A DNA stretch of 64,000 nucleotides from Calditrichaceae bacterium (GTDB taxonomy: Bacteria; Calditrichota; Calditrichia; Calditrichales; JBFXGD01), in assembly GCA_050173015.1 (NCBI GenBank), contig JBFXLE010000008.1, forward strand, positions 105,036 to 169,035, written 5' to 3'. Within the stretch, counting starts at the first letter, position 1, and every line of letters begins with the position of its first letter. Positions 32,252 to 49,965 of this stretch are shown one piece after another. The position numbers were made by a program, and so were the translations under genes. Under the pieces are notes generated by a model that did no database searches, was not told the origin of the DNA, and saw nothing but the letters and a program-made list of their open reading frames with translations.

Positions 32252-32317
32252 CCTGTCTGCCTTTCACTCAGGAAGTCTGAAAAATCTCTCTCACCATTTA
32301 AACGACCTCATTCCGGA

Positions 32318-34549: not shown

Positions 34550-34634
34550 TTATTTTCTCCTGATGCTGAGAGTTCTATGTTAAACTTTAAATCATACGTG
34601 AGAGACCGAGAATGAAGCCTTTAAAGCACAAATT

Positions 34635-35120
34635 CTATTTTTGTTTGTTCTTTTCAGCCATTCGCTCCATTCTGATTGCTGTGGCGGTTTTTATCATTTC
34701 TAAACCGGTTAAATAGGTACCGCCGTAATGCCCGATAAAAAATTCAGCATTTTCACTGCTTCTGAATGAAAAAGTCGGCATCATGGCATAAGCGGGGAGA
34801 ATGTTGCTGCCGACCACAAAACTGGCATCGTTCATTTCTATCAGATCACCCGTATAGAAATCCTTTACTTTTACGGAAGTGTATTTAGTTTTGTCCATCA
34901 ATGCTGTCGCGCAGCCCACGGCGCAGGCATGTGTTACCGGGCCCCCGTCAAGTGACAATTCAATCCGAGTCCACATCTTTTCATAAACATCCATTCCGCA
35001 AATGGGGCAGGATCCGATTTTATCACCCAGATCCGGCTTCAGAACCGCGCCGGCGTTTTGTGAGTACCCGATAGCCATAAATAATAAAATGCAAATTATG
35101 ATTAATTTTATCGATTTCAT
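34635..35120 (-). CDS. NosL-like secreted metal-binding protein
   Basis: Signal peptide, CPICGM, HACAVGC, FVVGS...AMMP...F...YGG. Confidence 0.8.
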   Translation of the reverse strand: MKSIKLIIICILLFMAIGYSQNAGAVLKPDLGDKIGSCPICGMDVYEKMWTRIELSLDGGPVTHACAVGCATALMDKTKYTSVKVKDFYTGDLIEMNDASFVVGSNILPAYAMMPTFSFRSSENAEFFIGHYGGTYLTGLEMIKTATAIRMERMAEKNKQK

Positions 35121-35163
35121 TTTTAATCTCCGTTTTACTTTTTAAAGATTAATTTTGAATGAA

Positions 35164-35649
35164 TTACATTTCCTGTCCAACAGACAGTCTCATCAACAAA
35201 TCCCATGTGACTTCGTCAAATTTTAACATTTTACTACCCTGATGATCCTCCCTGAATTCTTCCGCGTCCGTTTTTGTTTTTAGCGGCACCAGTTCATTCC
35301 CCATCGGCCCAAGAATATCGCTGTCAATCACAAAAAAGGCGCTGTCGGCTTCTACCCACTGCAGTTCATAATATTCGCGAACATATATTTTCACCGGTTT
35401 TTGTTCAGCGGACCCTCCGTATTTTTCCGGATGCAGAAAATATTTAAACATATCTTTTGGACCGTCAAAAAACTTCACCATCCCATCCGCATAAATCATT
35501 TCAGCAATCCATTTCGGATAGGGGTGAACAAACATGGCGCAAACCGGACAGCGATCCTTCTCACCGGGCATTTTTGGATTTTGATCAGCAGCCTCCGAAA
35601 CAAAAACAACCAGGAGAAGCGACAAAATGATTATTTTGATTTTTTTCAT
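35164..35649 (-). CDS. NosL-family protein
   Basis: RCPVCAM, FFDGPKDM, SDILGPMG, F.EDHQG. Confidence 0.88.
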   Translation of the reverse strand: MKKIKIIILSLLLVVFVSEAADQNPKMPGEKDRCPVCAMFVHPYPKWIAEMIYADGMVKFFDGPKDMFKYFLHPEKYGGSAEQKPVKIYVREYYELQWVEADSAFFVIDSDILGPMGNELVPLKTKTDAEEFREDHQGSKMLKFDEVTWDLLMRLSVGQEM

Positions 35650-35712: not shown

Positions 35713-36234
35713 TCAGGGACCGTTCTGACTTGCTGTCTTATTTTCAGTTCGGCGGCCAATTCTGTCAAAAATATATTGTTCTGTAAGCCACCCGACATAA
35801 ACCTCGAGAATCACACCTTCCCTGCTTAGTACAAAAGTAGTGGGGATTCCTTTGATTTTGTAGCGCTTCGCGGTTTTTGCGTACTCATCCACCAGCATTG
35901 GAAAAGTCACGTTAAATTCAATCTGAAAATCCTCCACATGATATTTGCTCTGTCCAACATTTACGCAAAGAATTTCCGCCTGCGCCATATCGCCAAACTT
36001 CTCATACGAGTTCTGCATCACCGGAAACTCGGAACGACATTCAGAGCACCAATCCCCCCAAAAATGAAGAAGGACTATTTTCCCTTTATAGTCATTTAAT
36101 GATACTTCCCTGCCGTTTACGTCATTTAGAAGAAAATCAGGCGCCTGCTCACCGATTTCGGGCATTCTATCACCGCATCCCATCATCATCATGAGAAAAA
36201 GGGTGATGATCCCCGTCTCTGAGATTTTTTTCAA
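35713..36234 (-). CDS. TlpA/ResA-like thioredoxin lipoprotein
   Basis: MMGC lipobox, APDF.L, FWGDWCSEC, GIPTTF. Confidence 0.92.
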   Translation of the reverse strand: MKKISETGIITLFLMMMMGCGDRMPEIGEQAPDFLLNDVNGREVSLNDYKGKIVLLHFWGDWCSECRSEFPVMQNSYEKFGDMAQAEILCVNVGQSKYHVEDFQIEFNVTFPMLVDEYAKTAKRYKIKGIPTTFVLSREGVILEVYVGWLTEQYIFDRIGRRTENKTASQNGP

Positions 36235-36317
36235 TTTCAGATACTCCGAAATAAATTCCGTCTCATAAAAACGGGATATTAATCAAGTTTTATTAATTAG
36301 AAGACTAAAGGGATGGA

Positions 36318-36695
36318 TTATTCGGGTGGATGATAAATATCCTTCTGTAAAACAGGGATACTCAAAAAATCATTTTTTGGTTTTAACAGGGTTTGCTTAT
36401 CGGGGATTAAAAGCAAATTTTCAAAAAACATTAATTTAGCGGTTAGATCCATAACCACCGGAACAATCGTACTCATGCGTGAAGCACAATGCGTAAACCC
36501 GATCAGGCCGGCCTCATCATCACAGGTGCATTTTGTCATATCACCATTGCATCCGCAATTGCAATAATGGACCAAATCCGGAAGCGCTTCCGCCTGCCGG
36601 AAGGCTTCCTGAATGACAGGTACTCCGGCCATATTAAAAATGACCAGGAAGCTCATAAATAACGCCAGGATTTTTTTCCGATTGACCCGATTCAT
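36318..36695 (-). CDS. Cys-rich small membrane protein ending in HPP (putative CruR/DUF2946-like regulatory upstream ORF)
   Basis: N-terminal hydrophobic segment, HYCNCGC...KCTC...HC (6 Cys), C-terminus DIYHPPE. Confidence 0.65.
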   Translation of the reverse strand: MNRVNRKKILALFMSFLVIFNMAGVPVIQEAFRQAEALPDLVHYCNCGCNGDMTKCTCDDEAGLIGFTHCASRMSTIVPVVMDLTAKLMFFENLLLIPDKQTLLKPKNDFLSIPVLQKDIYHPPE

Positions 36696-36713: not shown

Positions 36714-37547
36714 TTACAAATCTTTGTTTGAAAATATTTTTATCGCCAGCGCCAGCGGCAGACCGCCCCATGCCAGCAATGCCGTAAATAATACCAGAAA
36801 TCCGCTTCCCGTTCCGCCTACAAACTTTAATACCGCCCCTGCCGTAGGCCCGAACATGATCTTTCCGCCCAGAACAAACAAGGTTCCTACCCTTACAAGA
36901 TCAACCGGATTTCCAAAAAGCATTCCAAAAAGCACATTACGGAGTACGTTTCCCTCAAAACTGGAAGCCAGCCACATGACAAGCAAATCATAAAGAATAA
37001 CAAATATGAACCAGACAAATAAACCGATACTGAGGGCTTGTGTTCTTTTCATAGTGATCACACTTATCAGCGCGGAAATACTTAAAAATATCAACCCTAA
37101 AACAAGACTCAGCAAAACAAAAGCGATATACGCCGTCAGATCACTCGCGCCCGCTCTCCATCCGATGACCATACCGGCGGCGCCGAAACCGATACCTGTG
37201 GAAATCACTATAGCGAGAAACAAACCAAAATACTTCCCCAGCAGATTTTCTGATCGCAATACCGGCTGTGATATCTGAAGCTGCAGTGCTCCCGGTTCAT
37301 CCGACGCAAAGCTCATTGCTCCCAGAATTAGAGCTACCAACGGGACAAGGTAAAGATTCAAATTTAATAAACTCGCTGTTGTGCGGATAAAATCCTGGAA
37401 ACCGGTAAATCCTGATATTTTTGTGCCCGCGAAACTGATTGTAAGAGCGATTACAGCAAATACCACCGAAAAAATCATCACCCAACGGCTACGGATTACC
37501 GAGAGTAATTCCTGCATGGCAATTGAATTAATTATTTTAATATTCAT
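36714..37547 (-). CDS. nosY: NosY ABC permease for CuZ maturation
   Basis: RTTASLLNL, YLVPLVAL, GKY.G, YDLL, NPVDL.R; downstream of nosDFL. Confidence 0.9.
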   Translation of the reverse strand: MNIKIINSIAMQELLSVIRSRWVMIFSVVFAVIALTISFAGTKISGFTGFQDFIRTTASLLNLNLYLVPLVALILGAMSFASDEPGALQLQISQPVLRSENLLGKYFGLFLAIVISTGIGFGAAGMVIGWRAGASDLTAYIAFVLLSLVLGLIFLSISALISVITMKRTQALSIGLFVWFIFVILYDLLVMWLASSFEGNVLRNVLFGMLFGNPVDLVRVGTLFVLGGKIMFGPTAGAVLKFVGGTGSGFLVLFTALLAWGGLPLALAIKIFSNKDL

Positions 37548-38307
37548 AGGATTCCTTTGTCTCTTCTGCCAGATGCGCTCCCGTTACAATGAGCCTGCCA
37601 ATTATTTTATCTGAATTATTCTCAAAAATATCAAAGCGGTCGCCGGGCTTATCAACCTTTAATCTGTACATTCTTGATTCCCCGTATGGAATTTCCATTT
37701 GCAATTCAGGATAATTCAGGATACTGATTGACGCATCCTTTTCTGTCCGGTTCGATATACGAATCTGTACTATCTGATTCAGAGTTGCTTCAAATACTTC
37801 CGGAGTGAGCTTATTCTGGATATAATCCGCCCGGACATATAAATCCGGTTCCTGATATTCGTCCCACATTTTATTCCATGAGAGAATTTCGCCCTCGCGG
37901 ATTGTATTTTTAAATTTCAGCGCTGCCGCCGAATCGCTAAAAGTCGTAACATTAAAGTCCATGACAGGAGTGCGATAATCACCCCTGACAAAGAGAGCGC
38001 TGTCCGCGGCAATCCAGTTTTTTGTGTCAAAGGCAATCACATAAAATTTGAGTATATTATTTTTCTCCCTCACGTGGCCGCCGGAAAAATACTGTACCAT
38101 GCAGATGGGATGATCAAATTTTATGATCTCTCCATTTATTTTGATTAATTCAGCGGCATACTCAAAATCAAGAATCTCCATCCGGCAGGTTATACAAATA
38201 TCACCCTTTTCAACCGGTACGGGCTCACCCGAAATGCTCCCGCATCCCGTAATCAATGAAAAGATGGCACTTAATATGGCCTGACCGATCCATTTTTGTA
38301 TGCTCAT
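37537..38307 (-). CDS. nosL: NosL copper chaperone lipoprotein with C-terminal cupredoxin-like extension
   Basis: ITGC lipobox, CITCRM, FDHPICM, TPVM; extra ~100 aa beta-rich tail. Confidence 0.85.
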   Translation of the reverse strand: MSIQKWIGQAILSAIFSLITGCGSISGEPVPVEKGDICITCRMEILDFEYAAELIKINGEIIKFDHPICMVQYFSGGHVREKNNILKFYVIAFDTKNWIAADSALFVRGDYRTPVMDFNVTTFSDSAAALKFKNTIREGEILSWNKMWDEYQEPDLYVRADYIQNKLTPEVFEATLNQIVQIRISNRTEKDASISILNYPELQMEIPYGESRMYRLKVDKPGDRFDIFENNSDKIIGRLIVTGAHLAEETKESYEY

Positions 38308-39212
38308 TCCTGAATATTCTCCGAAAATATCCTGTTGTAAACATATTCCAGCGTCGGGTCTTCCGTCCAGAAACGCTCTATTTTTGCCCCGGCTTTACGC
38401 AGAATTTCCAGCAAATTAGGACGTTTGTCGGCTTCAACAACTACCCGGAAAATGTCACCTTCGATTTCAACTTCCCTCGCTCCGTTCGCAAGAAGCAGAT
38501 CCTTGTATTCCGGTTGTGTATTAAGAAATACAATAATCATTCTGGCATCGGCGTCAGATGTTCTCTTTAATTCAAGCGCGTCTTTTACGGCAATCAGCCG
38601 GCCGTCTTTCAGAAGAGCGATTCGGTCCGCCAGTTGTTCCGCTTCGCTCAACAGATGTGTGGCCATGACAATAGTGCATTTTCTGGCTTTAATCTCCCTC
38701 ACGAGTTCTTTAAACTTGGCCACGCCCTGCAGATCAAGGTTTATGGTTGGCTCATCAAGGATGTAGACGTTAGCCGGAGACAATTTCAATAATCCTAGAC
38801 CAAGCCTCTGAACCATTCCCCCTGAAAACACCCCGACAAATTTATCCGTTGATCCGTTCAGATTGATATCTTTTAAAATCTCATTAATATGAGTCTGCGG
38901 TTGTTGTCTTATTTTCGAGTGATACAAAAGAATCTCTCTGGCCGTCAAATTATCCGGAAATGACAGCCTCTGGGGCAAAAACATCATATTTTTTTTAACT
39001 TCCCTTGGATATTTCCAGACATCGGTGTCATTGACTAAAATCTGTCCGGTTGTGGGCTTGATAAGCCCAATGATCATTTTTAATAATGTCGATTTTCCGC
39101 TGCCGTTCGGACCAAGCAGAGCAAAGGTCTCTCCGGGTTTTATGTCAAGATCGACGTTATTAACAGCAAGCGTATCTTTGAATTTTTTTGATATATTTCT
39201 GATCTTTATCAT
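38304..39212 (-). CDS. nosF: NosF ABC ATPase
   Basis: GPNGSGKS, FSGGM, LDEP; lies between nosD and nosL. Confidence 0.9.
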   Translation of the reverse strand: MIKIRNISKKFKDTLAVNNVDLDIKPGETFALLGPNGSGKSTLLKMIIGLIKPTTGQILVNDTDVWKYPREVKKNMMFLPQRLSFPDNLTAREILLYHSKIRQQPQTHINEILKDINLNGSTDKFVGVFSGGMVQRLGLGLLKLSPANVYILDEPTINLDLQGVAKFKELVREIKARKCTIVMATHLLSEAEQLADRIALLKDGRLIAVKDALELKRTSDADARMIIVFLNTQPEYKDLLLANGAREVEIEGDIFRVVVEADKRPNLLEILRKAGAKIERFWTEDPTLEYVYNRIFSENIQE

Positions 39213-39228: not shown

Positions 39229-40650
39229 TTAAATTTCTGATTTGAACCAACTGTTTACCCGATATATCATGAGACCGGAGAAGCCGAATAATAATGACGA
39301 AAAAAGAAGCATCGGGAAAATCATTTTTTTCTCATTCGGCGGCATTAAACGGGACAAAAGCCACTCCGGCATCTGGACCGGCTTCATTAGCGGATAATGG
39401 TCTGTATGTTTAACCTGTTCAATAAACGGCAAGATGCGTTCTGAAAATACTAACGCCTGCGCGGCAGGACTATAAACATACAAACGGAAAAAGGGATACT
39501 CACCCTGAAGATGGTCAAAAATCCCCTGTACACGGTGCGGAATATCACTTATCCCGTCCGCGTCAAGATCGTAGCCTTTAAAATTACTCCAGTAGTTACC
39601 ATGATGATCTTTTTGCCATGTAACGGTTACTTCGCCTCCGACAGAAACCAGATTACTCAGATTATCTACAAAGGTGTTATCATAAAAATTAGTACCTTCT
39701 GAACTAAGATAGTATTTAATCGCCACACCGCTTTGTGCAATGAGGTTGTTGCGGACGACATTTAAATGAGACATGTCCAGGAACATACCGGTAGTGTTAT
39801 TTACAATAAGATTATACTCGGAAAGTGAATGCCGGACATCTTTATAGAGCACTCCATATGCCCGGTAACCCACATTATGAGCAAAGATGTTGTACCTGAA
39901 TACGAGACCCCGCTCGGAGTACATCAGTGCGACACCCGCCACATTTTCAGTAAAATAGTTATGCTCAAACACATCATAATCCGAATACATAAAATGCAGG
40001 CCATAACGCACATTTTTAATAAGACAATGGGTTACAAGGTTGCTGTCGGCAAAATCGAAATAAATACCATCGCGCGCGCCGTAAACATATAATGAATCCA
40101 GGTGATTATTGCGCGAATCATGCAGGTGAATACCGTTTCCTCTGTCTTCTTCGGGTTCACTATCACGCCCGTGAATAGTGGTTTTTTTTATGATATTATA
40201 ATTCGCGCTAAAAAGATAGATTCCGAACAAATTGTCTTCGAACAGACAATTTTCAATAACATTATGATGCGCCTTGTAAATCTTCAATCCCGCATTATCA
40301 TGAATCCGCTTATGCCCGCCTCCCCTGATAATGAAACCTTTTATCGTACAGGAATCAGCAAACAACTTTACTGCGTCCCCTGAATCCGTCGGCGCGGATA
40401 TAATAGCCCCCTGTTCCCCAAGCAAAATCAGCTTTTTATCTATCTTAATATTCCCGAAGTATGTTCCCGCTTTCACTCTAATAGTATCGCCCGGCTGGGC
40501 GGCTTCAATCGCTGAATTTATTGAATTGAACTTTTGATCACTTTTTGAAACAAATATGGTGCCGGCCGTACTGGCGGGGGGAAACGCCAGGACGATGGCG
40601 AAACTGAGGACAACTTCTTTCCATAGACTCATTTTCATTACCGACACCAT
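39229..40650 (-). CDS. nosD: NosD beta-helix maturation protein
   Basis: PGDTI, RGNGIHL, RDGIY, RYGLHFMY, GNYWS..GYDLD.DG; C-terminal TM. Confidence 0.93.
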   Translation of the reverse strand: MVSVMKMSLWKEVVLSFAIVLAFPPASTAGTIFVSKSDQKFNSINSAIEAAQPGDTIRVKAGTYFGNIKIDKKLILLGEQGAIISAPTDSGDAVKLFADSCTIKGFIIRGGGHKRIHDNAGLKIYKAHHNVIENCLFEDNLFGIYLFSANYNIIKKTTIHGRDSEPEEDRGNGIHLHDSRNNHLDSLYVYGARDGIYFDFADSNLVTHCLIKNVRYGLHFMYSDYDVFEHNYFTENVAGVALMYSERGLVFRYNIFAHNVGYRAYGVLYKDVRHSLSEYNLIVNNTTGMFLDMSHLNVVRNNLIAQSGVAIKYYLSSEGTNFYDNTFVDNLSNLVSVGGEVTVTWQKDHHGNYWSNFKGYDLDADGISDIPHRVQGIFDHLQGEYPFFRLYVYSPAAQALVFSERILPFIEQVKHTDHYPLMKPVQMPEWLLSRLMPPNEKKMIFPMLLFSSLLFGFSGLMIYRVNSWFKSEI

Positions 40651-40720: not shown

Positions 40721-41149
40721 TTATTTCCGCCAGGTTTCTTTCTCTCCGAGATTCTGCTTCTGGGCGATTTGCCCTCTCACCGCGGCAACCCCTGCCTTTA
40801 TCATCCATTGAAGCGCCTGATCAAGATCCTCCGTCATCTGATAAGTACAAACCTTCTTTTCATCCATATCTTTCTTCACTTTTTCCATAAAGGCCAGCGC
40901 TTTTTTCTCCCACATTTTAGCATCTTTAATCTCTTCAAATACGAGAGTATTCATTTTTCTGGACTCAACATCCTTTATGACAGAGTCAACGATGTTTTGT
41001 GTCGCTGTGCATTCGTTATATTTTGACTCACATTCCTTCATATCGAATTTTTTTACCTTGTACTGTGCCTGAACCGGCGCGACAAGAAAGATGCCAAGAA
41101 ATAACATCAGCACCATCCAGGCGGGATTATATAATTTAAAACCTTTCAT
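40721..41149 (-). CDS. Hypothetical secreted helical Met/Cys-rich protein inside the nos cluster
   Basis: Signal peptide ending VQA; 7 Met and 3 Cys in the mature part; GAGGAG RBS; between nosB and nosD. Confidence 0.7.
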   Translation of the reverse strand: MKGFKLYNPAWMVLMLFLGIFLVAPVQAQYKVKKFDMKECESKYNECTATQNIVDSVIKDVESRKMNTLVFEEIKDAKMWEKKALAFMEKVKKDMDEKKVCTYQMTEDLDQALQWMIKAGVAAVRGQIAQKQNLGEKETWRK

Positions 41150-41152: not shown

Positions 41153-41797
41153 TTACTCCTCTGATATTTTTTGTGTTCTGGAAAAAAATATGGCCGCAAC
41201 AAGCAGCGCAGCCGCAACACCCAAAAAAACGGCGCCTGACCGCGGCATATTTGTCACTCCAAAATTTGCAATCTGCCTGAAGCCAATGAGTGGCGGTGTA
41301 AAACCTTCAATTTTCATGGCAGCTTGCGGGGATAAATCATGCCCGTAATTGTAAAGCCATATATAAAAACGATAAAAACTGAAGCCCGCAAGGTAACTCA
41401 GGAGCACCACCAGATCTATGAGTCCCGACATGCGTCCCATGATGAGCAGCCTTAGTGCCAGCAGTGAAAGAATACCGATGGCCAATGGCAGCCAGGTCAA
41501 CTCCGGAAAATCACTTTCCTGAATATGTTTCATACCGATGTAGTGATTCAGAACATTTATTTCTTTCAAATGTCTGCCATGATCTCCACTCTCCAGTTTA
41601 TGTGAGTAAATATCCAAAACGAGTCCATCAGGATAGAAATTCGAATTGAGGGTCATTCTATAGAGTGGAAAGGCGTATGTCATCAACAGGCTGACCACGG
41701 CGATTAATATCAAAACACGTGATTTGACGGTCAGCGGAAGATCGGTGAAATGATTCAGCTTTTCCAGAAATTTATCGATGCGATTTGAATTTTTCAT
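41153..41797 (-). CDS. nosB: NosB membrane protein of clade II nos clusters
   Basis: YPDGL, INVLNHYIGM, FPE, WLYNYGHDL.P.A, PPLIG; directly after nosZ; ATG 41797 after AAGGAG. Confidence 0.88.
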   Translation of the reverse strand: MKNSNRIDKFLEKLNHFTDLPLTVKSRVLILIAVVSLLMTYAFPLYRMTLNSNFYPDGLVLDIYSHKLESGDHGRHLKEINVLNHYIGMKHIQESDFPELTWLPLAIGILSLLALRLLIMGRMSGLIDLVVLLSYLAGFSFYRFYIWLYNYGHDLSPQAAMKIEGFTPPLIGFRQIANFGVTNMPRSGAVFLGVAAALLVAAIFFSRTQKISEE

Positions 41798-41856
41798 TAG
41801 TAACTCCTTAAAAATGCCTTTACCGGGCTCCTTCTGCAAATGATCAACATCCTGAA

Positions 41857-43821
41857 TTAATTTATAAGTTTCGCGTGTTTGATTTTATTTGCCGGAGTGA
41901 TTTCAAGTTTTTCAGCACCTTTCGGCTTCACCAATAGATAACCCTGCATTTCCTGATGCAGCGCCGAACAGAAATTCGTGCAGTAGAACGGCCAGACACC
42001 CGGTTTATTGAGTTTTACAGTAAGAGTTTTGGTTTCTCCGGGAAACAAATCGGTGTTAACATCATATTCACATATGGCGAATCCATGAATTTCATCCCGC
42101 ATTTCTTCAATATTTGTCAAATGAATAGTGAGATTATCCCCTTCCATACATTCGATTTTTGTCGGCGCTAATGTACTCCTGACAACAGTCATCCATACTT
42201 CCACGTTGTTTCCATTTCTCACAACTTTGGCATCTTTCGCATCCCAAATAGCATTCGGATGTTCATTGAAAATAGCATTAGACGGAGCATCTGATCCTTT
42301 TTTGTAGAACATTTCTACGACATTGGAAGCAATCAGGTCCGCTTTGAGAAAAACCGCATAATGAGGTTCCGGCTCCGGGAATGCCTGGAATATCATTTTC
42401 ATTTTCTCACCGGATATATCTATTAACTGACCGCTTTCCGGCATATCCGGTCCGACCGGTAAATGTGTGCCTTTGGACAATTTATTCAGCGATATTAACC
42501 AGTTTCCATGGGGATGCATAGTTTCTCCGTGAGCAACCGCCAAATGCCCCACATTGTAAGCGACAGGAATCTTATCGACCAGTTCCCATTTATCATTCAG
42601 ACCCACACTCCATTTCGCGATCGCGCTTTCAACAAAAAGACTGGTGTAGGCATAACCTTTTTCGTCAAACTGAGTGTGAAGCGGACCAAGCCCTACAGTT
42701 ACTTCCGCTTCTCTGACAGCATTATAGCGTAACACAGGAATGCCGTCTTCATCGCCTTCGAAGTCTTTACTGTTAATTGCCTGCTGAATTTTTTCAAAAC
42801 TAAAAATTGACACTGTTGGCGAAAGTTTGCCATTACCAACGATATATTTGCCGTCAGGAGTCACATCGACCCCGTGAGGACTCTTCGGACATGGAACAAG
42901 GTAAACTAAACCGGGATTCTTGTTCGGGTCAAGCACAGGAACTCCGCCCAGCATAATTGTTTTTCCGGAATCTTTTATATTTTTTTCTGCAAGTTTCCAG
43001 TTGACGACCGCGATATAATCCATTTCTTTCTGGGAAGCGGTAACCTCCAGAACACCCGTCGCTCTCTCTGAATTATAGCAAGTCCAGAATGCCCATCCGT
43101 CACTTGGACCTTTACCGGCATCACCAAGGTCAAAATTGAACGGCGGCATCAAAATTTCCCAGCCGTAACTAAAATGACCGTCAACAGGATCAATTTTTAT
43201 TCCCGCCACAATTCCTTTATATGATTTCGCGTAATCTTCAACGTCTTCATATTTTCCCTTTGGTAGCGGTATAGAAAATCGGCTGGCCATTAGTGAGTAC
43301 TCAGTATTCGGAGTCACATAAGCGGACCCATGATCACCCATCACATTGGGAACAGGCCCGAATACTTCAACTGTCCTGAAGGTACGAAGATCGATTCTTG
43401 CCGTCCTGTTATTTGCGTTGTCATTCACAAATAACCATCTTCCGTCATAATCACCATTCGTTTCACTGGGCGCGGGATGATGCACGTCGCCCCATCTGAA
43501 ATCACCCATCAGAGCTTCACTCTCAACGTCAAATCCGTACCCCGTGGCCGCGTAATCCTGAAACACAGGAATCGTGCGAATATGACGCATTGACGGAACA
43601 CCATAAACATACACACAACCATTGTGACCGCCGGACATGAACACATAGTAATCATCAAAATCACCCGGAGCGACATAAGTCCTCAGTGCATTTTCTGCGA
43701 CTTCGCTCTTGGCAGTGGTCCCCTGTTTTTCTCCGCCGCCACATCCACCGCCCATAAACATCATAAAGATGCCCGCGATTATAAAAGTGGTCAGCATCGG
43801 AACTAAAATACTGCGTTTCAT
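41857..43821 (-). CDS. nosZ: Nitrous-oxide reductase, clade II (Sec/lipoprotein signal)
   Basis: CuZ His motifs DVHH, GDH, PHG, GPLH, VGH, EPH; CuA motif HGF...CTNFCSALHQEM; no twin-Arg; signal ends GGGC. Confidence 0.98.
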   Translation of the reverse strand: MKRSILVPMLTTFIIAGIFMMFMGGGCGGGEKQGTTAKSEVAENALRTYVAPGDFDDYYVFMSGGHNGCVYVYGVPSMRHIRTIPVFQDYAATGYGFDVESEALMGDFRWGDVHHPAPSETNGDYDGRWLFVNDNANNRTARIDLRTFRTVEVFGPVPNVMGDHGSAYVTPNTEYSLMASRFSIPLPKGKYEDVEDYAKSYKGIVAGIKIDPVDGHFSYGWEILMPPFNFDLGDAGKGPSDGWAFWTCYNSERATGVLEVTASQKEMDYIAVVNWKLAEKNIKDSGKTIMLGGVPVLDPNKNPGLVYLVPCPKSPHGVDVTPDGKYIVGNGKLSPTVSIFSFEKIQQAINSKDFEGDEDGIPVLRYNAVREAEVTVGLGPLHTQFDEKGYAYTSLFVESAIAKWSVGLNDKWELVDKIPVAYNVGHLAVAHGETMHPHGNWLISLNKLSKGTHLPVGPDMPESGQLIDISGEKMKMIFQAFPEPEPHYAVFLKADLIASNVVEMFYKKGSDAPSNAIFNEHPNAIWDAKDAKVVRNGNNVEVWMTVVRSTLAPTKIECMEGDNLTIHLTNIEEMRDEIHGFAICEYDVNTDLFPGETKTLTVKLNKPGVWPFYCTNFCSALHQEMQGYLLVKPKGAEKLEITPANKIKHAKLIN

Positions 43822-43906: not shown

Positions 43907-45139
43907 TCAATTTAAATTTAGAGCTTTCATCCGCTCGGCTTCCTCCGCTCTCGCTAACTTATAAGCATTATTAAGCAGCGTTATAACTTCCTGTTTTTCT
44001 TTGTCCGTCAGTACAATCTGGGTTGAAAGCACCACTTCCATCGTGGCTTTGGGAGTGACCATAAACTGCTCAAGTGTCAGATTAAATCGTTTTTGCACAT
44101 CTTCCGCCGCCTTACTCAACTCAGGCCCAATATTGGTAGGTGATTCTACTTCATACACCTTAACGCTATGACAAATAAAACACCCTTTTTCGACAAAGAA
44201 TTTGCCGCCGCCTTCCATCATTCTTCTTTCCTTATCTATTTCTTCCTTTGTTTTCTCCTCGGTGAGATTAATTCCCGGCAAATACTCGACAGGCACATTC
44301 ATCTTCTGCCAGCTCATCACAAGCATTGCCAGAGACTGACCATCTTTTGTCGAAAAATTAAATTGCGGCATGATTGATGTAGGTACGAGCGCTGTAGGCG
44401 AGCGCAAATGCTGAACATGCCAGTTAAAAGAAGATTTATAGGATGTTGTATAATATGTAAAATCAAGCATTTCAGGATTTTTATCACCCTCATACATCAA
44501 ATCAGGACCGATTACTCCACCCTGCCCGTTGATCCTGTGGCAGGCGCTGCAGCCTTTAGTCTTCATCAATTTTTTTGCATGGTTGATGTATTCCATCCCC
44601 TCCGTATATCTCTCGTAACGGTGACAGGCGTTACAGTTCACCTCCATGAGCGCCCCTTTCGAACGCACGAGATAAATATCTTCTATCTCCCTGCCTAAAA
44701 CCGGAAATTCCCAGTGAGGTACCGCGCCGTATGCGGTCGCAAATTCCAGCGAATACCCCTGCCCGCCATGACAAACAGTACAGCCGTACTTTTCGATCGG
44801 GTGCTTTTGCAATATTTTCGACGGGTGACTCCTATGCGGATTTGGACTGTATTCCATACCTTTCCATGTTAACCCCAGATGACAGGATGGACATCGGTCA
44901 ACCCGGTTAAGATCCGCGATATAGATCTGCTTGATGCCTTTCTCAATCTTTGAAGCGGTCTCCTTGCCGGATTTTTCAAGAACGATATCATAAAAATCAT
45001 CCTGGTACGCGCTCCAGTCAGCTGAATATGACTGAATAATTATAAATCCTGTAATAACCAGGAGAAACAATGACAGGGAAAAAAGCAGATATGGTTCATT
45101 CTTTATCCCGTCAAAACTAAATTTTTTAAATATATTCAT
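43907..45139 (-). CDS. Membrane-anchored pentaheme cytochrome c
   Basis: N-terminal TM; CPSCH, CTVCH, CNACH, CSACH, CFICH; ATG 45139 after GGAG. Confidence 0.92.
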   Translation of the reverse strand: MNIFKKFSFDGIKNEPYLLFSLSLFLLVITGFIIIQSYSADWSAYQDDFYDIVLEKSGKETASKIEKGIKQIYIADLNRVDRCPSCHLGLTWKGMEYSPNPHRSHPSKILQKHPIEKYGCTVCHGGQGYSLEFATAYGAVPHWEFPVLGREIEDIYLVRSKGALMEVNCNACHRYERYTEGMEYINHAKKLMKTKGCSACHRINGQGGVIGPDLMYEGDKNPEMLDFTYYTTSYKSSFNWHVQHLRSPTALVPTSIMPQFNFSTKDGQSLAMLVMSWQKMNVPVEYLPGINLTEEKTKEEIDKERRMMEGGGKFFVEKGCFICHSVKVYEVESPTNIGPELSKAAEDVQKRFNLTLEQFMVTPKATMEVVLSTQIVLTDKEKQEVITLLNNAYKLARAEEAERMKALNLN

Positions 45140-45156
45140 TATATATACTCCGCCTA

Positions 45157-46539
45157 TCAGAATCGAACCGGTATTGAAGGCCACGCTTCCCATGGCCAGT
45201 AAAAATCATAAAATGTGCCGCGCATAAACGTGCCGACAATAACAAGTACCAAAATGAGTACGACGATGATGATAAATATCAAATTTTGTTTATTTCTGCC
45301 CTTATGAAACCACACCCCTATTGCTTGTGGGCCGCTTTTATCGATAAACGGCCAGACGGCAAGTAAAACAAGAAGTACTCCCGGTACGATAATCCCCCCG
45401 ATAAGCGCGCCGTTCAGCATGTAGCCGCCGATTTTGAAAGATGTATCCGCGACCAGTTCCTGCAGCCACAAAAAATACCATGGCGCCTTCGCGACGTCAG
45501 GGGTGACCCCCGGATTGGCCGGCGCTTCGAGAGGCGCCTTAAAAAGTATTGATAAAACCGTGGTTACCAGAAATGTCAGAATAAAAACGGTGAGGATTCT
45601 TCTTGGTAAAAATGGACTGGTATTAAGAGTATCCTCCTCAGATACCATTGATGTGATGACGCTCGGTCTTTGCCCTCTGGCGATTCCCAACAGTGAATAT
45701 GTTTTTGATGAGGTGACTTCAATGGTTTGCTCTTTTCGCTCAAGGGCAAGATGATCAACGCAGGCCAGCCCGCCGTCTTTACGGATTCGCCACATATGAT
45801 ATGAGATTAGTATGAGGAGAATTATCGGCAGAAACGCCACATGCAGCACATAAAAACGAATCAGAGTGTTTTGCTCGATCTGATTGCCGCCAAGCAGAAG
45901 ATAACTCATAGAGTCGCCGATCAGCGGCGCGGCCTTCGCGATATTGGTTCCCACAGTGATCGCCCAGTAGGCAAGCTGATCCCATGGCAAAAGGTATCCT
46001 GTAAAAGAAAGAAACATCGTGAGCAAAAGTAAAAGTATGCCCGACAGCCAGTTCACCGCTCGGTTCGCTCCGACGACTTCCGCGCTGCGGTAAGCGCCGG
46101 TTAAAAACACTCTTACCATATGAAAAAACACAACCGCGACCATCAGATGGGCCGCCATTCTGTGGGTGTTGCGAAGAAGCCATCCAAATGAAATCACAAA
46201 TTCTATATCCTTGACACTCCAGTAAGCGCGTTCGATGGATGGAACATAGTAGAACATCAGGACAACGCCGGTAATAGAAAGGATTAAGAATAATGACGCT
46301 GAAATCGTACCCAGCCAGAGCGAATACCCCCAGGAGAGGCTTTTTTTTGTGATTTTTGCCGGAAACCAGTGTAGCAGGAAATTCCGTATGATCGATTCTC
46401 CCGCTTCTTTCGCGCTGCGTGGAAGCCATGTCCAAATGCTTCTTTCCCAAACATTCAGCCAGTACTCCCGCGATATAATCTTTCCGTTTCCGTTACTTTT
46501 TACTTCAGGCGTGTCGGTTACTTTTTCTTGAAGATCCAT
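45157..46539 (-). CDS. Cytochrome b of a Rieske/cytb complex (cyt b6-like fused to subunit IV)
   Basis: TGVVLMFYYVP, H-x13-H, FTGYLLPWDQLAYWA, H-x14-H, PLEAPANP...KAPWYF. Confidence 0.93.
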   Translation of the reverse strand: MDLQEKVTDTPEVKSNGNGKIISREYWLNVWERSIWTWLPRSAKEAGESIIRNFLLHWFPAKITKKSLSWGYSLWLGTISASLFLILSITGVVLMFYYVPSIERAYWSVKDIEFVISFGWLLRNTHRMAAHLMVAVVFFHMVRVFLTGAYRSAEVVGANRAVNWLSGILLLLLTMFLSFTGYLLPWDQLAYWAITVGTNIAKAAPLIGDSMSYLLLGGNQIEQNTLIRFYVLHVAFLPIILLILISYHMWRIRKDGGLACVDHLALERKEQTIEVTSSKTYSLLGIARGQRPSVITSMVSEEDTLNTSPFLPRRILTVFILTFLVTTVLSILFKAPLEAPANPGVTPDVAKAPWYFLWLQELVADTSFKIGGYMLNGALIGGIIVPGVLLVLLAVWPFIDKSGPQAIGVWFHKGRNKQNLIFIIIVVLILVLVIVGTFMRGTFYDFYWPWEAWPSIPVRF

Positions 46540-46555
46540 ATTGATACTCCAAAAC

Positions 46556-47071
46556 TTAGGAAATATTAAATTCCGTTCCTTTTTTAACTTCGATTGAGGT
46601 ATCTATTACCAGCTGCTGATCGTCGGGGGCGATATCGATCTTATGCCAGGGGAGAGGGGTAGGCGCCGGTCCTTCATAATTAGTACCGTCCTCATAAAAC
46701 TTTGAGCCGTGACAGGGGCAATGATATTCATGGTTAATCTCAACATCTTTCCCGTCGATTTTCACTGTTTTTGGTTTTGCCAGTTGAACATGCTTCACCG
46801 TACAGCCCAGGTGAGTACATACTGCGGTGTGGGCGTGCATTTTTTTGTGATTTTTGGCGATGAATTCCTTCTGCTCACTAAAAAATTTTACACCGTCCGG
46901 AAGATCGGCCGCCATACCTACTTTAAATTTTTGCAGCGGCTCGTACAGAACATTTGGAACAAAAGAGCGGACCCAAGCGAAAAGATTACCCGCAAAGGCG
47001 ACAACAATTGTCCCCGCGCCAAGTTTGTTCAAAAATGAACGTCTGGTTTCTTTCTTTGTTGATTCTGTCAT
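46556..47071 (-). CDS. Rieske [2Fe-2S] protein
   Basis: Tat motif TRRSFL, CTHLGC, CPCHGS, GPAP.PL. Confidence 0.95.
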   Translation of the reverse strand: MTESTKKETRRSFLNKLGAGTIVVAFAGNLFAWVRSFVPNVLYEPLQKFKVGMAADLPDGVKFFSEQKEFIAKNHKKMHAHTAVCTHLGCTVKHVQLAKPKTVKIDGKDVEINHEYHCPCHGSKFYEDGTNYEGPAPTPLPWHKIDIAPDDQQLVIDTSIEVKKGTEFNIS

Positions 47072-47086
47072 TTAACTCACCTCTCA

Positions 47087-49024
47087 TCAAACTAATTGTT
47101 CATCAAATGAAAATTTTTCCATCGTCATGGCATCCGTCGGACAAATCTTCGCGCACAATCCGCAACGGATGCACAAATCTGTATCCTTGATCATTACCGA
47201 GAGTGGTGTATCATTATTAAGATCAAGACTTTTTGTTATTTTTTCTATTTCTTCCTGATTGATAATCATGTCATCAAAGGGTATGATTTTAAGACAGTAC
47301 TCAGGGCATATATCAACACATCCGCCGCAGAGAATGCATTTCTCCGAATCGTAAATTGTCTGAATGTGACACTTCAGACACCTTTCACCCTGCCCGACAG
47401 CTTCCTCAATGGAATACCCTGTTTCGACTTCAGTGATCCCTGTTCTGCGGTCAGTAGAAACAGTGGGAGGAATTTCCCGGTCACACTGTTCATAACCCGC
47501 GGGCATATCGTAGTCTCTGGTTTGGATTAGTTCGATTTTGGCGGTAATCCTGACTTCCGGTTGAGATATTTTTTGAGACGGTTCAGAAAGATATTTATGA
47601 ATGGAACCTGCCGCGAGTTTGCCGTTTGCGGCCGCTTCGATCAGTATTCTTGGACCAAAGGCCACGTCTCCGCCGCAAAAAACACCCGGCGCGGTGGTTT
47701 CCAGTGTGTCAGGATTGATTTTTATTGTTCCCTGTGGTAGCACTTCTACTTTGTCAGAAGAACTCAAAAACGAAAGATCCGGCACTTGTCCGATTGCTAA
47801 AATGACTGTATCAGCTTCTATCACTTTCTCGGTGTCCGGTCTAAGCACAGGATTAAACTTCCCGTTCTCATCGAACAACTTTTCCACTTCAAGAAATTCA
47901 ACACCGCTCAGTTTTCCGTCTTTTCCGGCAAATTTCTTTGGTCCCACGGATGGTAAAAACCTGATCCCTTCGATAGAAGCTTCGTGCAATTCATCCTTCC
48001 CCTGAACAGTTTTCGCCGCAGGCATTTCTTCAAAAGATTCAAGGGACGCTACCAGAACTTCCGCGCCTCCACGCCTGGCGCTTCGCGCTGCGTCAATAGC
48101 GACATGCATTTCTCCGGCTTCAGCGACTCGATCCACTTCATCCATTGGTTTATAGAACTCGCGTATCGCTGTTCTCGCGGCGTCAAGAGCAACGCTCCCG
48201 CCTCCGATGACAATGACTTTTTTACCGAGATCTATCTTATATCCGCTGTTGACGTTCAATAAGTAATCAACCGCCTTAACAACGCCGTCAAGTTGAATTC
48301 CGGGCAAATTAAGATCACGCCCTTTCATGGCCCCGGTGCTGAGAAAGATGGATTTATACCCCATTTTTTTTAATTCTTTTAAACCAAAACCCTTGTGGAG
48401 GCTTGCGTTATATTTAATCTCGACTCCAAGACTTTTAATAACCGCCACCTCTCTGTCGATCACACCGCGGGTAAGACGGTATTCCGGTATTCCCAGACGC
48501 ATCATGCCACCGGGAATCGCCGCCGCTTCAAAGATGGTCACCTTGTATCCCAGAAGCGCGAGATCATGCGCGCATGCTAATCCCGCCGGTCCGGCGCCGA
48601 TCACAGCGACTTTCACACCATCGTTTCTGCCGTTGTTTTTAAGAAGATTGGGCAAATGCCAGGCAAACTTACTACCAACATCGGGTTTTCCGGCTAATAA
48701 AGAATTAACCGTATCAGGTTTTGACGATTCCGGACCAAATTGCTCAGTTACAAACCGTTTTAATCCCCTGATAGTGACCGCCTCATCGAGTTTGCCTCTT
48801 CTGCACGCGTCTTCGCACGGAGCGGCGCATACTCTACCGCAAATGGAGGCTATCGGGTTCGGTGACTTGGCCACAAGGTAGGCATCTTCAAATTTGTTTT
48901 CTGCGATTAACTGAACATATTTCCCGGAATCGGTATGAACGGGGCAGGCCTGAAAACAAGGGACATCACTTCTATACCATTCAAAATCACGAAGATTAGT
49001 GATATATTTCACTTTGACTCCCAC
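47087..49024 (-). CDS. NAD(P)H-dependent FAD/FeS oxidoreductase (GltD/NfnB/DsrL-like) with C-terminal 2x[4Fe-4S]
   Basis: CFQACP, CGRVCAAPCEDAC, GAGPAG, GIPEYRL, GGGSVA, RCLKC, CILCGGCVDICP, CIRCGLCAKICP. Confidence 0.92.
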   Translation of the reverse strand: MGVKVKYITNLRDFEWYRSDVPCFQACPVHTDSGKYVQLIAENKFEDAYLVAKSPNPIASICGRVCAAPCEDACRRGKLDEAVTIRGLKRFVTEQFGPESSKPDTVNSLLAGKPDVGSKFAWHLPNLLKNNGRNDGVKVAVIGAGPAGLACAHDLALLGYKVTIFEAAAIPGGMMRLGIPEYRLTRGVIDREVAVIKSLGVEIKYNASLHKGFGLKELKKMGYKSIFLSTGAMKGRDLNLPGIQLDGVVKAVDYLLNVNSGYKIDLGKKVIVIGGGSVALDAARTAIREFYKPMDEVDRVAEAGEMHVAIDAARSARRGGAEVLVASLESFEEMPAAKTVQGKDELHEASIEGIRFLPSVGPKKFAGKDGKLSGVEFLEVEKLFDENGKFNPVLRPDTEKVIEADTVILAIGQVPDLSFLSSSDKVEVLPQGTIKINPDTLETTAPGVFCGGDVAFGPRILIEAAANGKLAAGSIHKYLSEPSQKISQPEVRITAKIELIQTRDYDMPAGYEQCDREIPPTVSTDRRTGITEVETGYSIEEAVGQGERCLKCHIQTIYDSEKCILCGGCVDICPEYCLKIIPFDDMIINQEEIEKITKSLDLNNDTPLSVMIKDTDLCIRCGLCAKICPTDAMTMEKFSFDEQLV

Positions 49025-49057: not shown

Positions 49058-49474
49058 TTAATGATTAAATACTCTTAGGAAGTTCTTTAAATTGTCACAT
49101 AACGAAAAATTTCTGTACACATCGCAACTATGACAATCTCCGTTTTTACAACTTATTTTTGCTTCAAAACATGGTTGTTTCTTTGAAATGTAGGCTGGAC
49201 AAGCCCTCTCTTCGTTGCAATTATTGATGTCCCAGCATGGAATGAGCGCGAGCAGCCGCCTGATACCTTCGATGTTCATCTTTTCATTCTTGATCAAATG
49301 TCTGATCTTTTTCAGCCACTCAAGATCATGCTCATCATATATACGCCGGTTCGTCCCTGTCCGGTGCGGAATTACGATACCTGCATCCTCATACATTCTT
49401 AGAGTGTTGGGAGATATATCAAGGAGACGGGCAATATCACCGATGGAATACCATTTTTTTATCAATGTTTCCAT
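49058..49474 (-). CDS. MerR-family regulator with Cys-rich C-terminal domain
   Basis: YSIGDIARLLDISPNTLRMYE...RRIY HTH; 8 Cys in PCWDINNC...CP...PCF...C...CHSC...C. Confidence 0.9.
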   Translation of the reverse strand: METLIKKWYSIGDIARLLDISPNTLRMYEDAGIVIPHRTGTNRRIYDEHDLEWLKKIRHLIKNEKMNIEGIRRLLALIPCWDINNCNEERACPAYISKKQPCFEAKISCKNGDCHSCDVYRNFSLCDNLKNFLRVFNH

Positions 49475-49934: not shown

Positions 49935-49965
49935 TAAAATAGCCGTTCAATGAACGGCTATTTTA
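49935..49965 (-). terminator. Intrinsic terminator after the acyl-CoA dehydrogenase gene
   Basis: 15-bp inverted repeat TAAAATAGCCGTTCA-A-TGAACGGCTATTTTA just past the stop at 49972. Confidence 0.8.

Follow-up and report, generated by a model that had tools for sequence, protein, structure and literature searches.

The DNA analysed here is a stretch of 64,000 nucleotides (nt) from a Calditrichaceae bacterium (assembly GCA_050173015.1, contig JBFXLE010000008.1), which in its whole length is called the window in the following, and the element of interest is a block of genes around nosZ, the gene of nitrous oxide (N2O) reductase. Directly upstream of nosZ lie four genes coding for a cytoplasmic flavoprotein of the flavin adenine dinucleotide (FAD) type with iron-sulfur (FeS) clusters, a Rieske protein, a cytochrome b and a pentaheme cytochrome c. 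The window has a G+C content of about 43%, and according to the listing of its open reading frames (ORFs) together with Pfam and NCBIfam searches all genes from the flavoprotein to NosY reside on the minus strand, in the following order:

47087..49024, minus strand: cytoplasmic FAD/FeS flavoprotein, NfnB/GltD-like, ORF of 645 amino acids (aa) (Pfam, PDB sequence search, fold search)
46556..47071, minus strand: Rieske [2Fe-2S] protein exported by twin-arginine translocation (Tat), 171 aa (Pfam Rieske)
45157..46539, minus strand: cytochrome b, b6-like and subunit-IV-like parts fused, 460 aa (Cytochrome_B and Cytochrom_B_C)
43907..45139, minus strand: membrane-anchored pentaheme cytochrome c, 410 aa (five CxxCH)
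41857..43821, minus strand: NosZ of the general secretory (Sec) type, i.e. clade II (TIGR04246)
41153..41839, minus strand: NosB-like polytopic membrane protein (hydrophobic helices; directly after nosZ)
40721..41149, minus strand: small secreted protein, 142 aa, with signal peptide, between the NosB-like gene and nosD
39229..40650, minus strand: NosD (TIGR04247)
38304..39212, minus strand: NosF, ATPase of the ATP-binding cassette (ABC) type (Pfam/NCBIfam)
37537..38307, minus strand: NosL-domain protein (Pfam/NCBIfam)
36714..37547, minus strand: NosY, ABC-2 permease (Pfam/NCBIfam)

For the first four genes and nosZ, an earlier note on this DNA had given gaps of 15-17 nt within the quartet and of 85 nt between the cytochrome c gene and nosZ, and both genes and spacing (15, 16, 17 and 85 nt) are confirmed by the ORFs and their Pfam and NCBIfam assignments. 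The absence of nosR, nosX and a nosGH pair, which the same note had recorded, holds for the window as well: no NosR- or NosX-like protein was detected among the window ORFs scanned with Pfam and NCBIfam, and no NapG/NapH (NosGH) pair occurs in the window; a lone NapH/NosH-like polyferredoxin (31362-30274; 76 bits vs. a NapH cutoff of 213) is encoded 5 kb beyond nosY and has no NapG-like neighbour. A GGAG-type Shine-Dalgarno sequence precedes each downstream start. The mechanically derived ORF of the cytochrome c begins at 45193 and overlaps the cytochrome b gene, but its likely start is the ATG at 45139, because the Shine-Dalgarno sequence sits there. Use of the second GTG (49012) would shorten the flavoprotein to 641 aa, and this is probably the true start, since the length agrees with that of a 99% identical database protein of 641 aa (P0001). 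Similarly, the NosB-like protein probably starts at 41797 and then comprises 214 aa instead of the 228 aa of its ORF. No terminator-like site was found by the terminator scan within the 85-nt gap between the cytochrome c gene and nosZ, and the RNA of this gap folds no better than shuffled sequences (z = 0.6). A sigma-70-like promoter scan was uninformative overall, with 43 sites vs. 33 +/- 5.3 expected, and returned a match at 9 of 12 positions inside this gap, so that an internal promoter may lie ahead of nosZ.

The first gene product combines an N-terminal Fer4_20 domain (4e-19), a Pyr_redox_2 domain (4.5e-30), a linker and a C-terminal domain for two [4Fe-4S] clusters (Pfam), with FAD- and NAD(H)-type (nicotinamide adenine dinucleotide) Rossmann domains in which the GxGxxG and GGGxxAxDxAR motifs are present. 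In addition, the C-terminal domain contains a further pair of cysteines (RCLxCH), and the helix scan revealed no hydrophobic helix in the protein. The two CxxCxxCxxxCP motifs, the RCLxCH pair and an RRTG motif are kept in all 71 full-length homologues, and the linker holds three invariant arginines (R516, R526 and R527). As the protein scores below every NCBIfam equivalog cutoff (e.g., gltA with 282 vs. 472), it is, by domain content and scores, a member of the NfnB/GltD family and none of the named enzymes. Its predicted structure (mean predicted local distance difference test score, pLDDT, 76.5) finds its best fold match in 9bov_A (Foldseek 8.5e-41, TM 0.59 over 665 columns), followed by NfnI (5jca, TMt 0.69) and the small subunits of glutamate synthases, and the best sequence match in the PDB is likewise found among NfnB-like subunits (1.8e-77). 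With the NfnB-like subunits of NfnABC/StnABC (9bov, 9n5u, 8oh5) and with NfnI it shares the succession of Fer4_20, FAD, NAD(P) and ferredoxin-like domains. In contrast to those subunits, which extend into or bind a molybdopterin-like domain or HydB-like flavin mononucleotide (FMN) subunits, the window protein ends after the ferredoxin domain, and it differs from them further by an insertion of about 28 residues and by the replacement of Y-R-R with S-L-E-S. Where the NADP-binding relative 9bov reads V-L-Y-R-R-T-R-E-E-M-P in the HMMER alignment, the window flavoprotein reads V-A-S-L-E-S-F-E-E-M-P, and neither S327 nor E329 varies in the family alignment. The YRR stretch of NfnB presumably binds the 2'-phosphate of NADPH, and at this place of a Rossmann fold an acidic residue usually indicates that NAD is bound and not NADP. 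Given the exchange of YRR for an invariant S-L-E-S, the likely nucleotide of the flavoprotein is therefore NAD(H) and not NADP(H).

The insertion itself (residues 289-317; 48073-48159, minus strand) is located in the NAD-binding domain, is specific to the family and repeats the preceding 'DAAR' helix; its residues A309, D311 and R314 as well as R318 are invariant, and it is modelled with a pLDDT below 50. Among the best 120 of 7987 scored database matches to the flavoprotein, all of which cover 97-100% of the query and have lengths of 624-668 aa, one is 99% identical, two are 72-73% identical and 117 are 54-60% identical. An Atlas feature search found an abundance of similarly built proteins, about 600 to 650 aa in length, in Actinomycetota and Pseudomonadota.

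The second gene encodes a Rieske protein with the two cluster-binding boxes CTHLGC and CPCHGSKF and a Tat motif (RRSFL) at residues 10-14. Both boxes are present in all 76 homologues and the RR motif in 68 of them. The serine of CPCHGS occurs in 76/76 sequences as well, and two residues further on, phenylalanine and tyrosine are found in 38 homologues each. These two residues suggest that the Rieske protein is of the high-potential type.

Cytochrome b contains seven hydrophobic helices, four of a b6-like and three of a subunit-IV-like part, in one fused chain. Its heme-b ligands, H126/H140 (14 residues apart) and H233/H248 (15 residues apart), are invariant in the 37 aligned cytochromes b. At the position of the cysteine that would bind heme cn, 45 of 66 homologues, and the window protein too, carry tryptophan and a further 19 tyrosine; hence, with one of these two residues in 64/66, a covalently bound heme cn should be absent. 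At the Qo site, 66/66 homologues have the motif APWY, in which the Trp-Tyr of the PEWY motif is kept but the Pro-Glu is not. On the cytoplasmic side, three regions are conserved: an N-terminal extension (W36, P40, G47 and H57-x-F-P, the last in 65/66), the end of helix D (R251, R253, K254, D255, G256 and G257), including the b6-type Arg-Lys after this helix (R253, K254) in 66/66 homologues, and a linker motif (K279, G285 and G289). The nearest NCBIfam families are ExtP (1.9e-70, residues 51-258, 237 vs. a cutoff of 290 bits) and ExtQ (4.5e-18, residues 305-449, 66 vs. a cutoff of 150 bits). Because ExtP aligns from residue 51 only, the early extension is particular to this cytochrome b family. 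ExtO/ExtP/ExtQ/ExtS from the Geobacter operon for selenite/tellurite reduction thus represent the closest named cytochrome b family, from which the window system differs by the fusion of cytochrome b with subunit IV, by the conserved 50-residue N-terminal extension and by NosZ as the operon partner. In six of the 37 aligned cytochromes b (loci L014, L024, L025, L027, L036 and L045), an insertion of about 70 residues with two extra hydrophobic stretches is present between helices F and G, and about 11 residues fewer follow the Qo motif.

In the cytochrome c, CxxCH occurs exactly five times and a single hydrophobic helix is located at the N-terminus; five motifs are also counted in 61 of 62 homologues. 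Its sequence comprises class-I-like domains resembling FixO and SoxX, with a sequence-level hint of NrfH and a weak ExtS match, and its model (mean pLDDT 66.6) gave no fold match in the PDB at E<=0.001. Presumably, it serves as the wire from the Rieske cluster to the CuA site of NosZ. NosZ itself is assigned to the Sec type by 823 bits for TIGR04246 (cutoff 625) vs. 453 bits for the Tat-type family TIGR04244, and in agreement its N-terminus (MKRS..., a hydrophobic stretch, then GGGC) resembles a lipoprotein signal peptide and lacks a twin-arginine motif; a C-terminal cytochrome c domain is absent. The subsequent NosB-like protein consists of several hydrophobic helices, belongs to no Pfam or NCBIfam family and has only neighbours annotated as 'hypothetical' in the Atlas, and NosD is recognized by TIGR04247 with 381 bits (cutoff 300). 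Taken as a set, the Rieske, cytochrome b and cytochrome c genes argue firmly for a quinol-oxidizing Rieske/cytochrome b complex dedicated to the nos system, which would sit in the membrane as quinol oxidase and deliver electrons from the Rieske protein via the pentaheme cytochrome c to the periplasmic NosZ.

Conservation of the block was surveyed in one genome per species with the flavoprotein as the anchor, based on an alignment of the window protein with 40 relatives (41 rows). This yielded 739 pattern matches with at least 698 confirmed relatives, of which the best 80 loci by flavoprotein similarity were examined. Genes were counted by tblastn with the window proteins if colinear and on the same strand, and a locus was regarded as eligible for a given gene if enough downstream DNA was available. 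Downstream of the flavoprotein gene, the Rieske gene was found in 77 of 78 eligible loci, cytochrome b in 71 of 72 and the pentaheme cytochrome c in 62 of 62, followed by nosZ (55/55), the NosB-like gene (52/52) and nosD (48/48), and the nosDFLY genes are colinear in related loci. The sole miss is locus L033, where an amylase-like gene comes after the flavoprotein gene. The gap between the flavoprotein and Rieske genes has a median of 28 nt and does not exceed 50 nt in 49 of 75 loci; the subsequent median gaps amount to 12.5 nt (Rieske to cytochrome b), 19 nt (cytochrome b to cytochrome c) and 41.5 nt (cytochrome c to nosZ). The loci stem from Acidobacteriota (several classes), Bacteroidota, Ignavibacteria, Gemmatimonadota, KSB1, Zixibacteria, Kryptonia and Myxococcota, the latter including Anaeromyxobacter soli (L075) with the full block. 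A chance neighbourhood is ruled out by this gene-for-gene recurrence in 55/55 eligible loci. By the same counts, the four genes are a conserved unit with clade II nosZ and make up a widespread operon type. Conservation with nosZ, on which the earlier note had let its proposal stand or fall, is hence as complete as the eligible loci can show, but the unusualness that it had ascribed to the arrangement was overstated, as operons of this type are common among clade II nos clusters and already appear in published gene maps, as far as these depict the cluster.

Since no upstream gene is conserved, the flavoprotein gene heads a conserved block of ten genes. In front of it, genes of the Rrf2 family (16 of 60 loci), the Crp/Fnr family (12/60) and the hemerythrin/ScdA type (7/60) are encountered, and regulators are, by these annotations, swapped in front of the block. 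In A. soli, all five proteins tested are closest to those of Acidobacteriota (68-82% identity), and for this reason the block appears to move as a unit. The window copy is at most 59-65% identical to that of any species-representative genome and is, on these identities, a deep-branching member of the operon type.

Several of the surveyed loci deserve separate mention. In six loci from Bacteroidota and Ignavibacteria (L007, L009, L032, L033, L039 and L048), the gene of a NapH-like membrane polyferredoxin of the Fer4_5 type precedes that of the flavoprotein and has the same orientation; these NapH-like proteins are 63-73% identical to each other and their genes are usually accompanied by one for an S-adenosylmethionine-dependent methyltransferase. 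In L033, the trio of NapH-like protein, methyltransferase and flavoprotein stands without Rieske, cytochrome b or nosZ genes, and because of this the flavoprotein may also serve a NapH-type membrane partner. L008 and L044 are two contigs of the metagenome-assembled genome (MAG) PWTU01, which accordingly has two copies of the flavoprotein-Rieske start; the copy in L008 precedes a divergent nos cluster, in which NosZ is 46% identical to that of the window (vs. 56-67% elsewhere) and NosL comes before NosD. Finally, in L048, from a MAG labelled Ignavibacterium album (10001-21878), the genes of flavoprotein, Rieske protein, cytochrome b and pentaheme cytochrome c lie directly upstream of nosZ. The relevant sections of the 2012 genome paper of I. 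album name alternative complex III as its only complex III, unlike relatives with cytochrome b-Rieske, and list NosZ as IALB_0848 and NosLDFY as IALB_0851-0854. The module may thus have been overlooked in the I. album type strain.

For clade II nos clusters of this kind, the work of Sanford et al. from 2012 is said to be the founding paper on such atypical clusters. Hein, Witt and Simon reportedly found in 2017 that N2O respiration by Wolinella succinogenes requires a Rieske/cytochrome bc complex. With this organism, which reportedly also has a clade II NosZ and, in place of the NosB-like protein, NosB, the window has a counterpart; in W. succinogenes, however, the bc complex is said to be a general one encoded outside the nos cluster, in contrast to the Rieske/cytochrome b genes inside the window operon. 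Likewise, W. succinogenes reportedly possesses NosGH, NosC1C2 and a heme c domain on NosZ and no flavoprotein, whereas the window has the flavoprotein and no NosGH pair. Much closer are the Anaeromyxobacter-type clade II nos clusters, which show the same order of Fe-S, Rieske, cy-b, cy-c, nosZ, nosB and nosDFYL without nosR or nosX, and from which the window cluster differs by its own MerR-type regulator and the extra gene of 142 aa. Gene maps of such clusters with 'Fe-S', 'Rieske (S or Rs)', 'cy-b' and 'cy-c' are drawn in PMC11096178 (Fig. 5) and PMC13122619 (Fig. 2), and the same clade II cluster type is referred to in the opening section of PMC9697520. As these maps and the survey show the same order, the window cluster is a further member of a known, drawn and widespread operon type. 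In the nos maps concerned, the first gene is labelled 'iron-sulfur protein' with no role assigned, and in the accessible text of a 2026 review (PMC13685413) NosHG is the sole electron route named for clade II. Within the open-access literature searched, no paper assigns an NAD(P)H enzyme to the Fe-S gene of nos clusters or ties this gene to the anammox complexes. From the cytochrome side, the parts of the study by Dibrova et al. (2017; PMC5600118) that concern cytochrome b subfamilies describe that subfamily G cytochromes b are accompanied by large, Cys-rich proteins that bind NAD(P), that 'in many other cases' beyond planctomycetes cytochrome b is found beside NAD(P)-binding FeS oxidoreductases, and that clade G' comprises long cytochromes b in large conserved operons with unassigned function. 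The trimmed supplementary alignment of that study is devoid of the motifs of the window cytochrome b family, so that G' is at most a candidate for this family, and the words nitrous and NosZ are absent from PMC5600118. What the searched literature does not offer is a role for the first gene, that of the flavoprotein.

One conceivable role is suggested by NosR, an FeS/flavin protein for which a review gives two proposed tasks, the transfer of electrons from the quinol pool or the cytoplasmic side and the maintenance of NosZ activity. NosR resembles the window flavoprotein in being a flavin/FeS accessory genetically tied to nosZ. By analogy, the flavoprotein might act, outside of respiration proper, as a maintenance factor that uses NAD(P)H to provide occasional electrons of low potential, via the b hemes or in another way, and so keeps or restores CuZ in its active reduced state, the bulk of electrons being delivered by an ordinary Q cycle. 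Clade II clusters are, in the same review text, described as lacking NosR, the proposed keeper of NosZ activity, the window cluster is also without a NosGH pair, and the flavoprotein gene is tied to nosZ (55/55) as tightly as the maturation gene nosD (48/48). Yet NosR is polytopic with a periplasmic FMN domain, while the window flavoprotein is a soluble FAD/NAD(H)-type protein of unrelated architecture, in which no FMN-bind domain, membrane helix or periplasmic part is present. Moreover, its gene is always placed at the Rieske/cytochrome b end of the block, away from nosDFYL, and its relatives are the NAD(P)H/FeS modules of bifurcating enzymes. A maintenance function of this type is therefore considered improbable.

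A closer parallel is provided by the Rieske/cytochrome b complexes of anammox bacteria, to which the four genes had been likened before the present comparison was made. According to the sections of PMC12954380 on these complexes, two of the three in Kuenenia carry a cytoplasmic NAD(P) oxidoreductase together with a multiheme cytochrome c, and the bifurcation of quinol electrons to a high-potential acceptor and NAD(P)+ is put forward as a proposal that has not been demonstrated. The likeness holds up at three points. First, the best PDB matches of the window Rieske protein, scoring better than any b6f Rieske protein, are 9rk4 (2.7e-16) and 9rk3 (3.2e-14), and these entries represent Kuste4569 and Kustd1480 (PMC12954380, Table 1). 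Second, the relatives of the window flavoprotein are NfnABC (9bov/9bp5) and, for the C-terminal domain, FwdF (5t5i), and it thus has NfnABC 9bp5 and FwdF 5t5i as structural relatives in common with the anammox reductase, for which these two are given as structural homologues of Kuste4570 in PMC12954380. In gene content, Kuste4569-4574 and Kustd1480-1485 encode a Rieske protein, a b6-like cytochrome b, a subunit-IV-like part, an anchored multiheme cytochrome c and an FAD/FeS reductase, as does the window. Also the Ser-x-Phe/Tyr signature of the Rieske protein is common to Kuste4569, Kustd1480 and the window family; potentials of +303 mV (Kuste4569, Ser/Tyr) and +335 mV (Kustd1480, Ser/Phe) are reported for the two anammox proteins (PMC12954380). 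The AlphaFold3 models described there set one reductase on a cytochrome b dimer and place a predicted extra heme b amid two His residues, one from the N-terminal part of each cytochrome b, the Arg/Lys that follows helix D and Arg511/Arg550 of the reductase. Third, candidate residues for such a heme site are invariant in the window family (His57, R253/K254 and R516/R526/R527) and are presumably equivalent to the anammox residues.

Differences between the two systems are nevertheless evident. The window cytochrome b is fused to subunit IV, while the b6-like cytochrome b of anammox bacteria is split from it; the five-helix subunit IV of the anammox complexes is matched by the six insertion-bearing sequences among the 37 aligned cytochromes b and not by the 4+3 helices of the window protein; and the heme-cn cysteine (CxGG) kept in anammox cytochrome b is replaced by tryptophan in the window. 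Five hemes are present in the window cytochrome c compared with six or eight in anammox bacteria, the high-potential partner is NosZ instead of an octaheme protein resembling hydroxylamine oxidoreductase, and the nucleotide site appears to be specific for NAD(H). On balance, the window module appears to be of the anammox-type architecture, for which the Rieske match constitutes the direct evidence of kinship.

On this background, the flavoprotein would bind the cytochrome b dimer from the cytoplasm, probably via the N-terminal extension and the cytoplasmic loops of the latter, with a chain of four or five FeS clusters joining heme bN to FAD and NAD(H). Its gene holds a near-obligate position in the operon, the protein has no membrane anchor, cytochrome b is conserved on its cytoplasmic surface, and the anammox complexes offer a precedent; together, these points make it probable that the flavoprotein is indeed a cytoplasmic subunit of the complex. 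Prediction of the complex from two copies of cytochrome b (residues 33-445) and one of the flavoprotein (residues 486-645) returned scores of 0.19 and 0.23 vs. a mark of 0.32, which were obtained with trimmed proteins and no cofactors and count neither for nor against binding.

The opposite assumption would be that the flavoprotein is a separate cytoplasmic oxidoreductase of the NAD(P)H:ferredoxin type, which balances the respective pools and is merely co-transcribed without any contact to cytochrome b. In line with this, the protein is soluble, no fusion with it turned up among 29 long cytochrome b homologues, similar proteins of about 600 to 650 aa abound in Actinomycetota and Pseudomonadota, and in L033 the gene occurs outside of a Rieske/cytochrome b context. 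Such independence, however, is difficult to reconcile with a Rieske gene immediately downstream in 77 of 78 loci across many phyla and with intergenic gaps of the size typical for translational coupling, and the homologous anammox protein is reported, with reference to complexome work, to co-migrate with its Rieske/cytochrome b partners (PMC12954380). A separate enzyme is thus judged very unlikely.

If the flavoprotein is a subunit, electrons could be partitioned as proposed for the anammox complexes. Menaquinol would be bifurcated at the Qo site, where one electron would proceed via the Rieske protein, cytochrome c and NosZ to N2O, and the second one, with no recycling at Qi, would reach NAD+ by way of hemes bP and bN and the FeS chain. 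The NADH formed would re-enter complex I ('NAD loop'), and more protons per electron would be translocated than in a plain Q cycle. This direction is favoured because the strict conservation of the flavoprotein suits a low-potential outlet rather than an optional inlet, and because a high-potential Rieske signature is found in presumed menaquinone users, which the host organisms are taken to be here. Menaquinol has a potential of about -74 mV and NAD+ one of -320 mV. Combining the menaquinol value with about +300 mV for the Rieske protein places, by arithmetic on textbook values, the second electron at the Qo site at about -450 mV, which should be enough for NAD+ even against the membrane potential. 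The complete chain of quinol bifurcation to N2O and NAD+ is accordingly offered as a tentative reading, possible but short of probable. Doubtful at present is the more specific view that the unit works as a menaquinol:N2O + NAD+ bifurcating oxidoreductase in which the very high potential of N2O, relayed by a high-potential Rieske centre, would push the second quinol electron across the membrane to NAD+, and in which the NAD loop replaces the Q cycle and raises the proton yield.

Alternatively, electrons might flow in reverse, i.e. from NAD(P)H through the flavoprotein to heme bN and the Qi site. The module would then act as a non-pumping NADH:menaquinone reductase feeding a normal Q cycle to NosZ, altogether an NADH:N2O oxidoreductase with which fermentative or oxygen-limited cells would dump reducing equivalents on N2O. 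Architecture and synteny fit this direction equally well, GltD-type modules normally oxidize NAD(P)H as known for the family, and the b6-type Arg-Lys on the Qn side is kept in 66/66 homologues. Furthermore, genes for an [FeFe]-hydrogenase and HydE/F/G-like proteins are located at 51-4834 of the window, and such a hydrogenase with its maturation genes suggests that the organism is a fermenting anaerobe for which an electron sink would be useful. In the literature, clade II N2O reduction uncoupled from growth is described for Flavobacterium azooxidireducens and Luteitalea pratensis. On the other hand, the passages of PMC12954380 on the anammox complexes reject this direction as a large energy loss, given the coupled NADH dehydrogenases there. 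A high-potential Rieske signature (Ser in 76/76) is not required for it either, and the strict conservation of an extra entry for NADH is hard to explain if NDH-1 or NDH-2 fill the quinone pool. Reverse flow is deemed rather unlikely, though it is the main rival of the bifurcation.

Several points weigh against a bifurcating complex with the flavoprotein as its cytoplasmic subunit. The contact between flavoprotein and cytochrome b is a proposal from conservation and analogy. Among 29 cytochrome b homologues of 806-2300 aa, none is fused to flavoprotein domains, a blank that in itself is weak evidence; in one of them the fusion partner is a Rieske protein, and in most it is a c-type cytochrome. 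The heme-cn cysteine that the anammox proteins keep is missing from cytochrome b, and because the b6-type Arg-Lys after helix D is retained, a working Qi site and thus an ordinary Q cycle are possible. The hosts are presumably mostly heterotrophs with ample NADH and no obvious need to generate it from quinol, and modules of the NfnB/GltD type are reversible. Locus L033 (one of 78) shows the flavoprotein without Rieske or cytochrome b genes, and the high Rieske potential is deduced from two residues. Even for the anammox complexes, bifurcation is only proposed in the relevant sections of PMC12954380.

Besides the block itself, further features of the window help to delimit and to characterize the cluster:

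49935..49965, minus strand: terminator-like hairpin, stem of 14 pairs followed by a T run, which closes the upstream acyl-CoA dehydrogenase gene
49058..49474, minus strand: MerR-family regulator with Cys-rich C-terminal tail (Pfam MerR_1, 1.3e-20)
36318..36695, minus strand: small signal-peptide protein at the end of the cluster
36258..36274, minus strand: terminator-like hairpin between the small signal-peptide gene and the thioredoxin-fold gene
35713..36234, minus strand: thioredoxin/AhpC-TSA-fold protein at the end of the cluster (Pfam)

The hairpin at 49935..49965 is likely the upstream boundary of the transcription unit. Next to it, the gene of the MerR regulator ends 33 nt upstream of the flavoprotein ORF, and its product has about nine cysteines in the C-terminal 60 residues. 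By tblastn, no match to this regulator was obtained at E<=1e-6 in the 80 related loci; it is, as far as those loci represent the family, specific to this lineage, and may act as a metal or redox sensor for the operon. The same holds for the secreted protein of 142 aa, which belongs to no Pfam or NCBIfam family and has no counterpart in the 80 related loci; in comparison with those loci, it is specific to this lineage too.

Downstream of nosY, an accessory cluster extends over 24096-35649 on the minus strand. It starts with two NosL proteins (35649-35164 and 35120-34635) and a TonB-dependent receptor (34549-32318), followed by a membrane protein of 326 aa with no assigned function (32251-31271) and the NapH-like polyferredoxin mentioned above. 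Subsequently, a double-cubane-cluster reductase is encoded (30286-28967), which with 350 bits just reaches the cutoff of NF040772, together with its ATPase activator of the BadF/BcrA type (28989-28174). Another NosL-domain protein, the third (28184-27330), and an ABC transporter of the MacB/FtsX type (26955-25107) conclude the cluster. A link of this cluster to the copper or sulfide supply of CuZ is conceivable from its gene content. At the other edge of the window, the C-terminal part of the [FeFe]-hydrogenase (51-830, plus strand) precedes two radical-SAM genes, which from their context are HydG- and HydE-like, and HydF (4834-3587, minus strand), and a subtilase bearing a sorting domain for type IX secretion is encoded at 60272-63097. 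Hydrogenase, Hyd genes and the sorting-domain subtilase suggest a fermentative anaerobe of the Bacteroidota/Ignavibacteria/Kryptonia superphylum, a placement with which the nearest relatives of NosZ and cytochrome b agree.

The electron supply of clade II NosZ bears on the main biological sink of a potent greenhouse gas, and Yoon et al. reportedly found in 2016 that some clade II organisms grow better per N2O than those of clade I. With the operon described here, a module distinct from NosGH is firmly tied to nosZ in phyla that abound in soils and sediments, namely Acidobacteriota, Bacteroidota, Ignavibacteria and Gemmatimonadota. Should the flavoprotein be one of the subunits of this module, N2O respiration would be wired directly to the pyridine nucleotide pool. 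Whether it then serves an energy-saving bifurcation or a sink for NADH, either would alter how the energetics and yields of N2O reduction are modelled. As the operon is also found in cultured and genetically accessible bacteria such as Anaeromyxobacter, it would, if this holds true, provide a first tractable model for the NAD(P)-reducing complexes of the anammox type.

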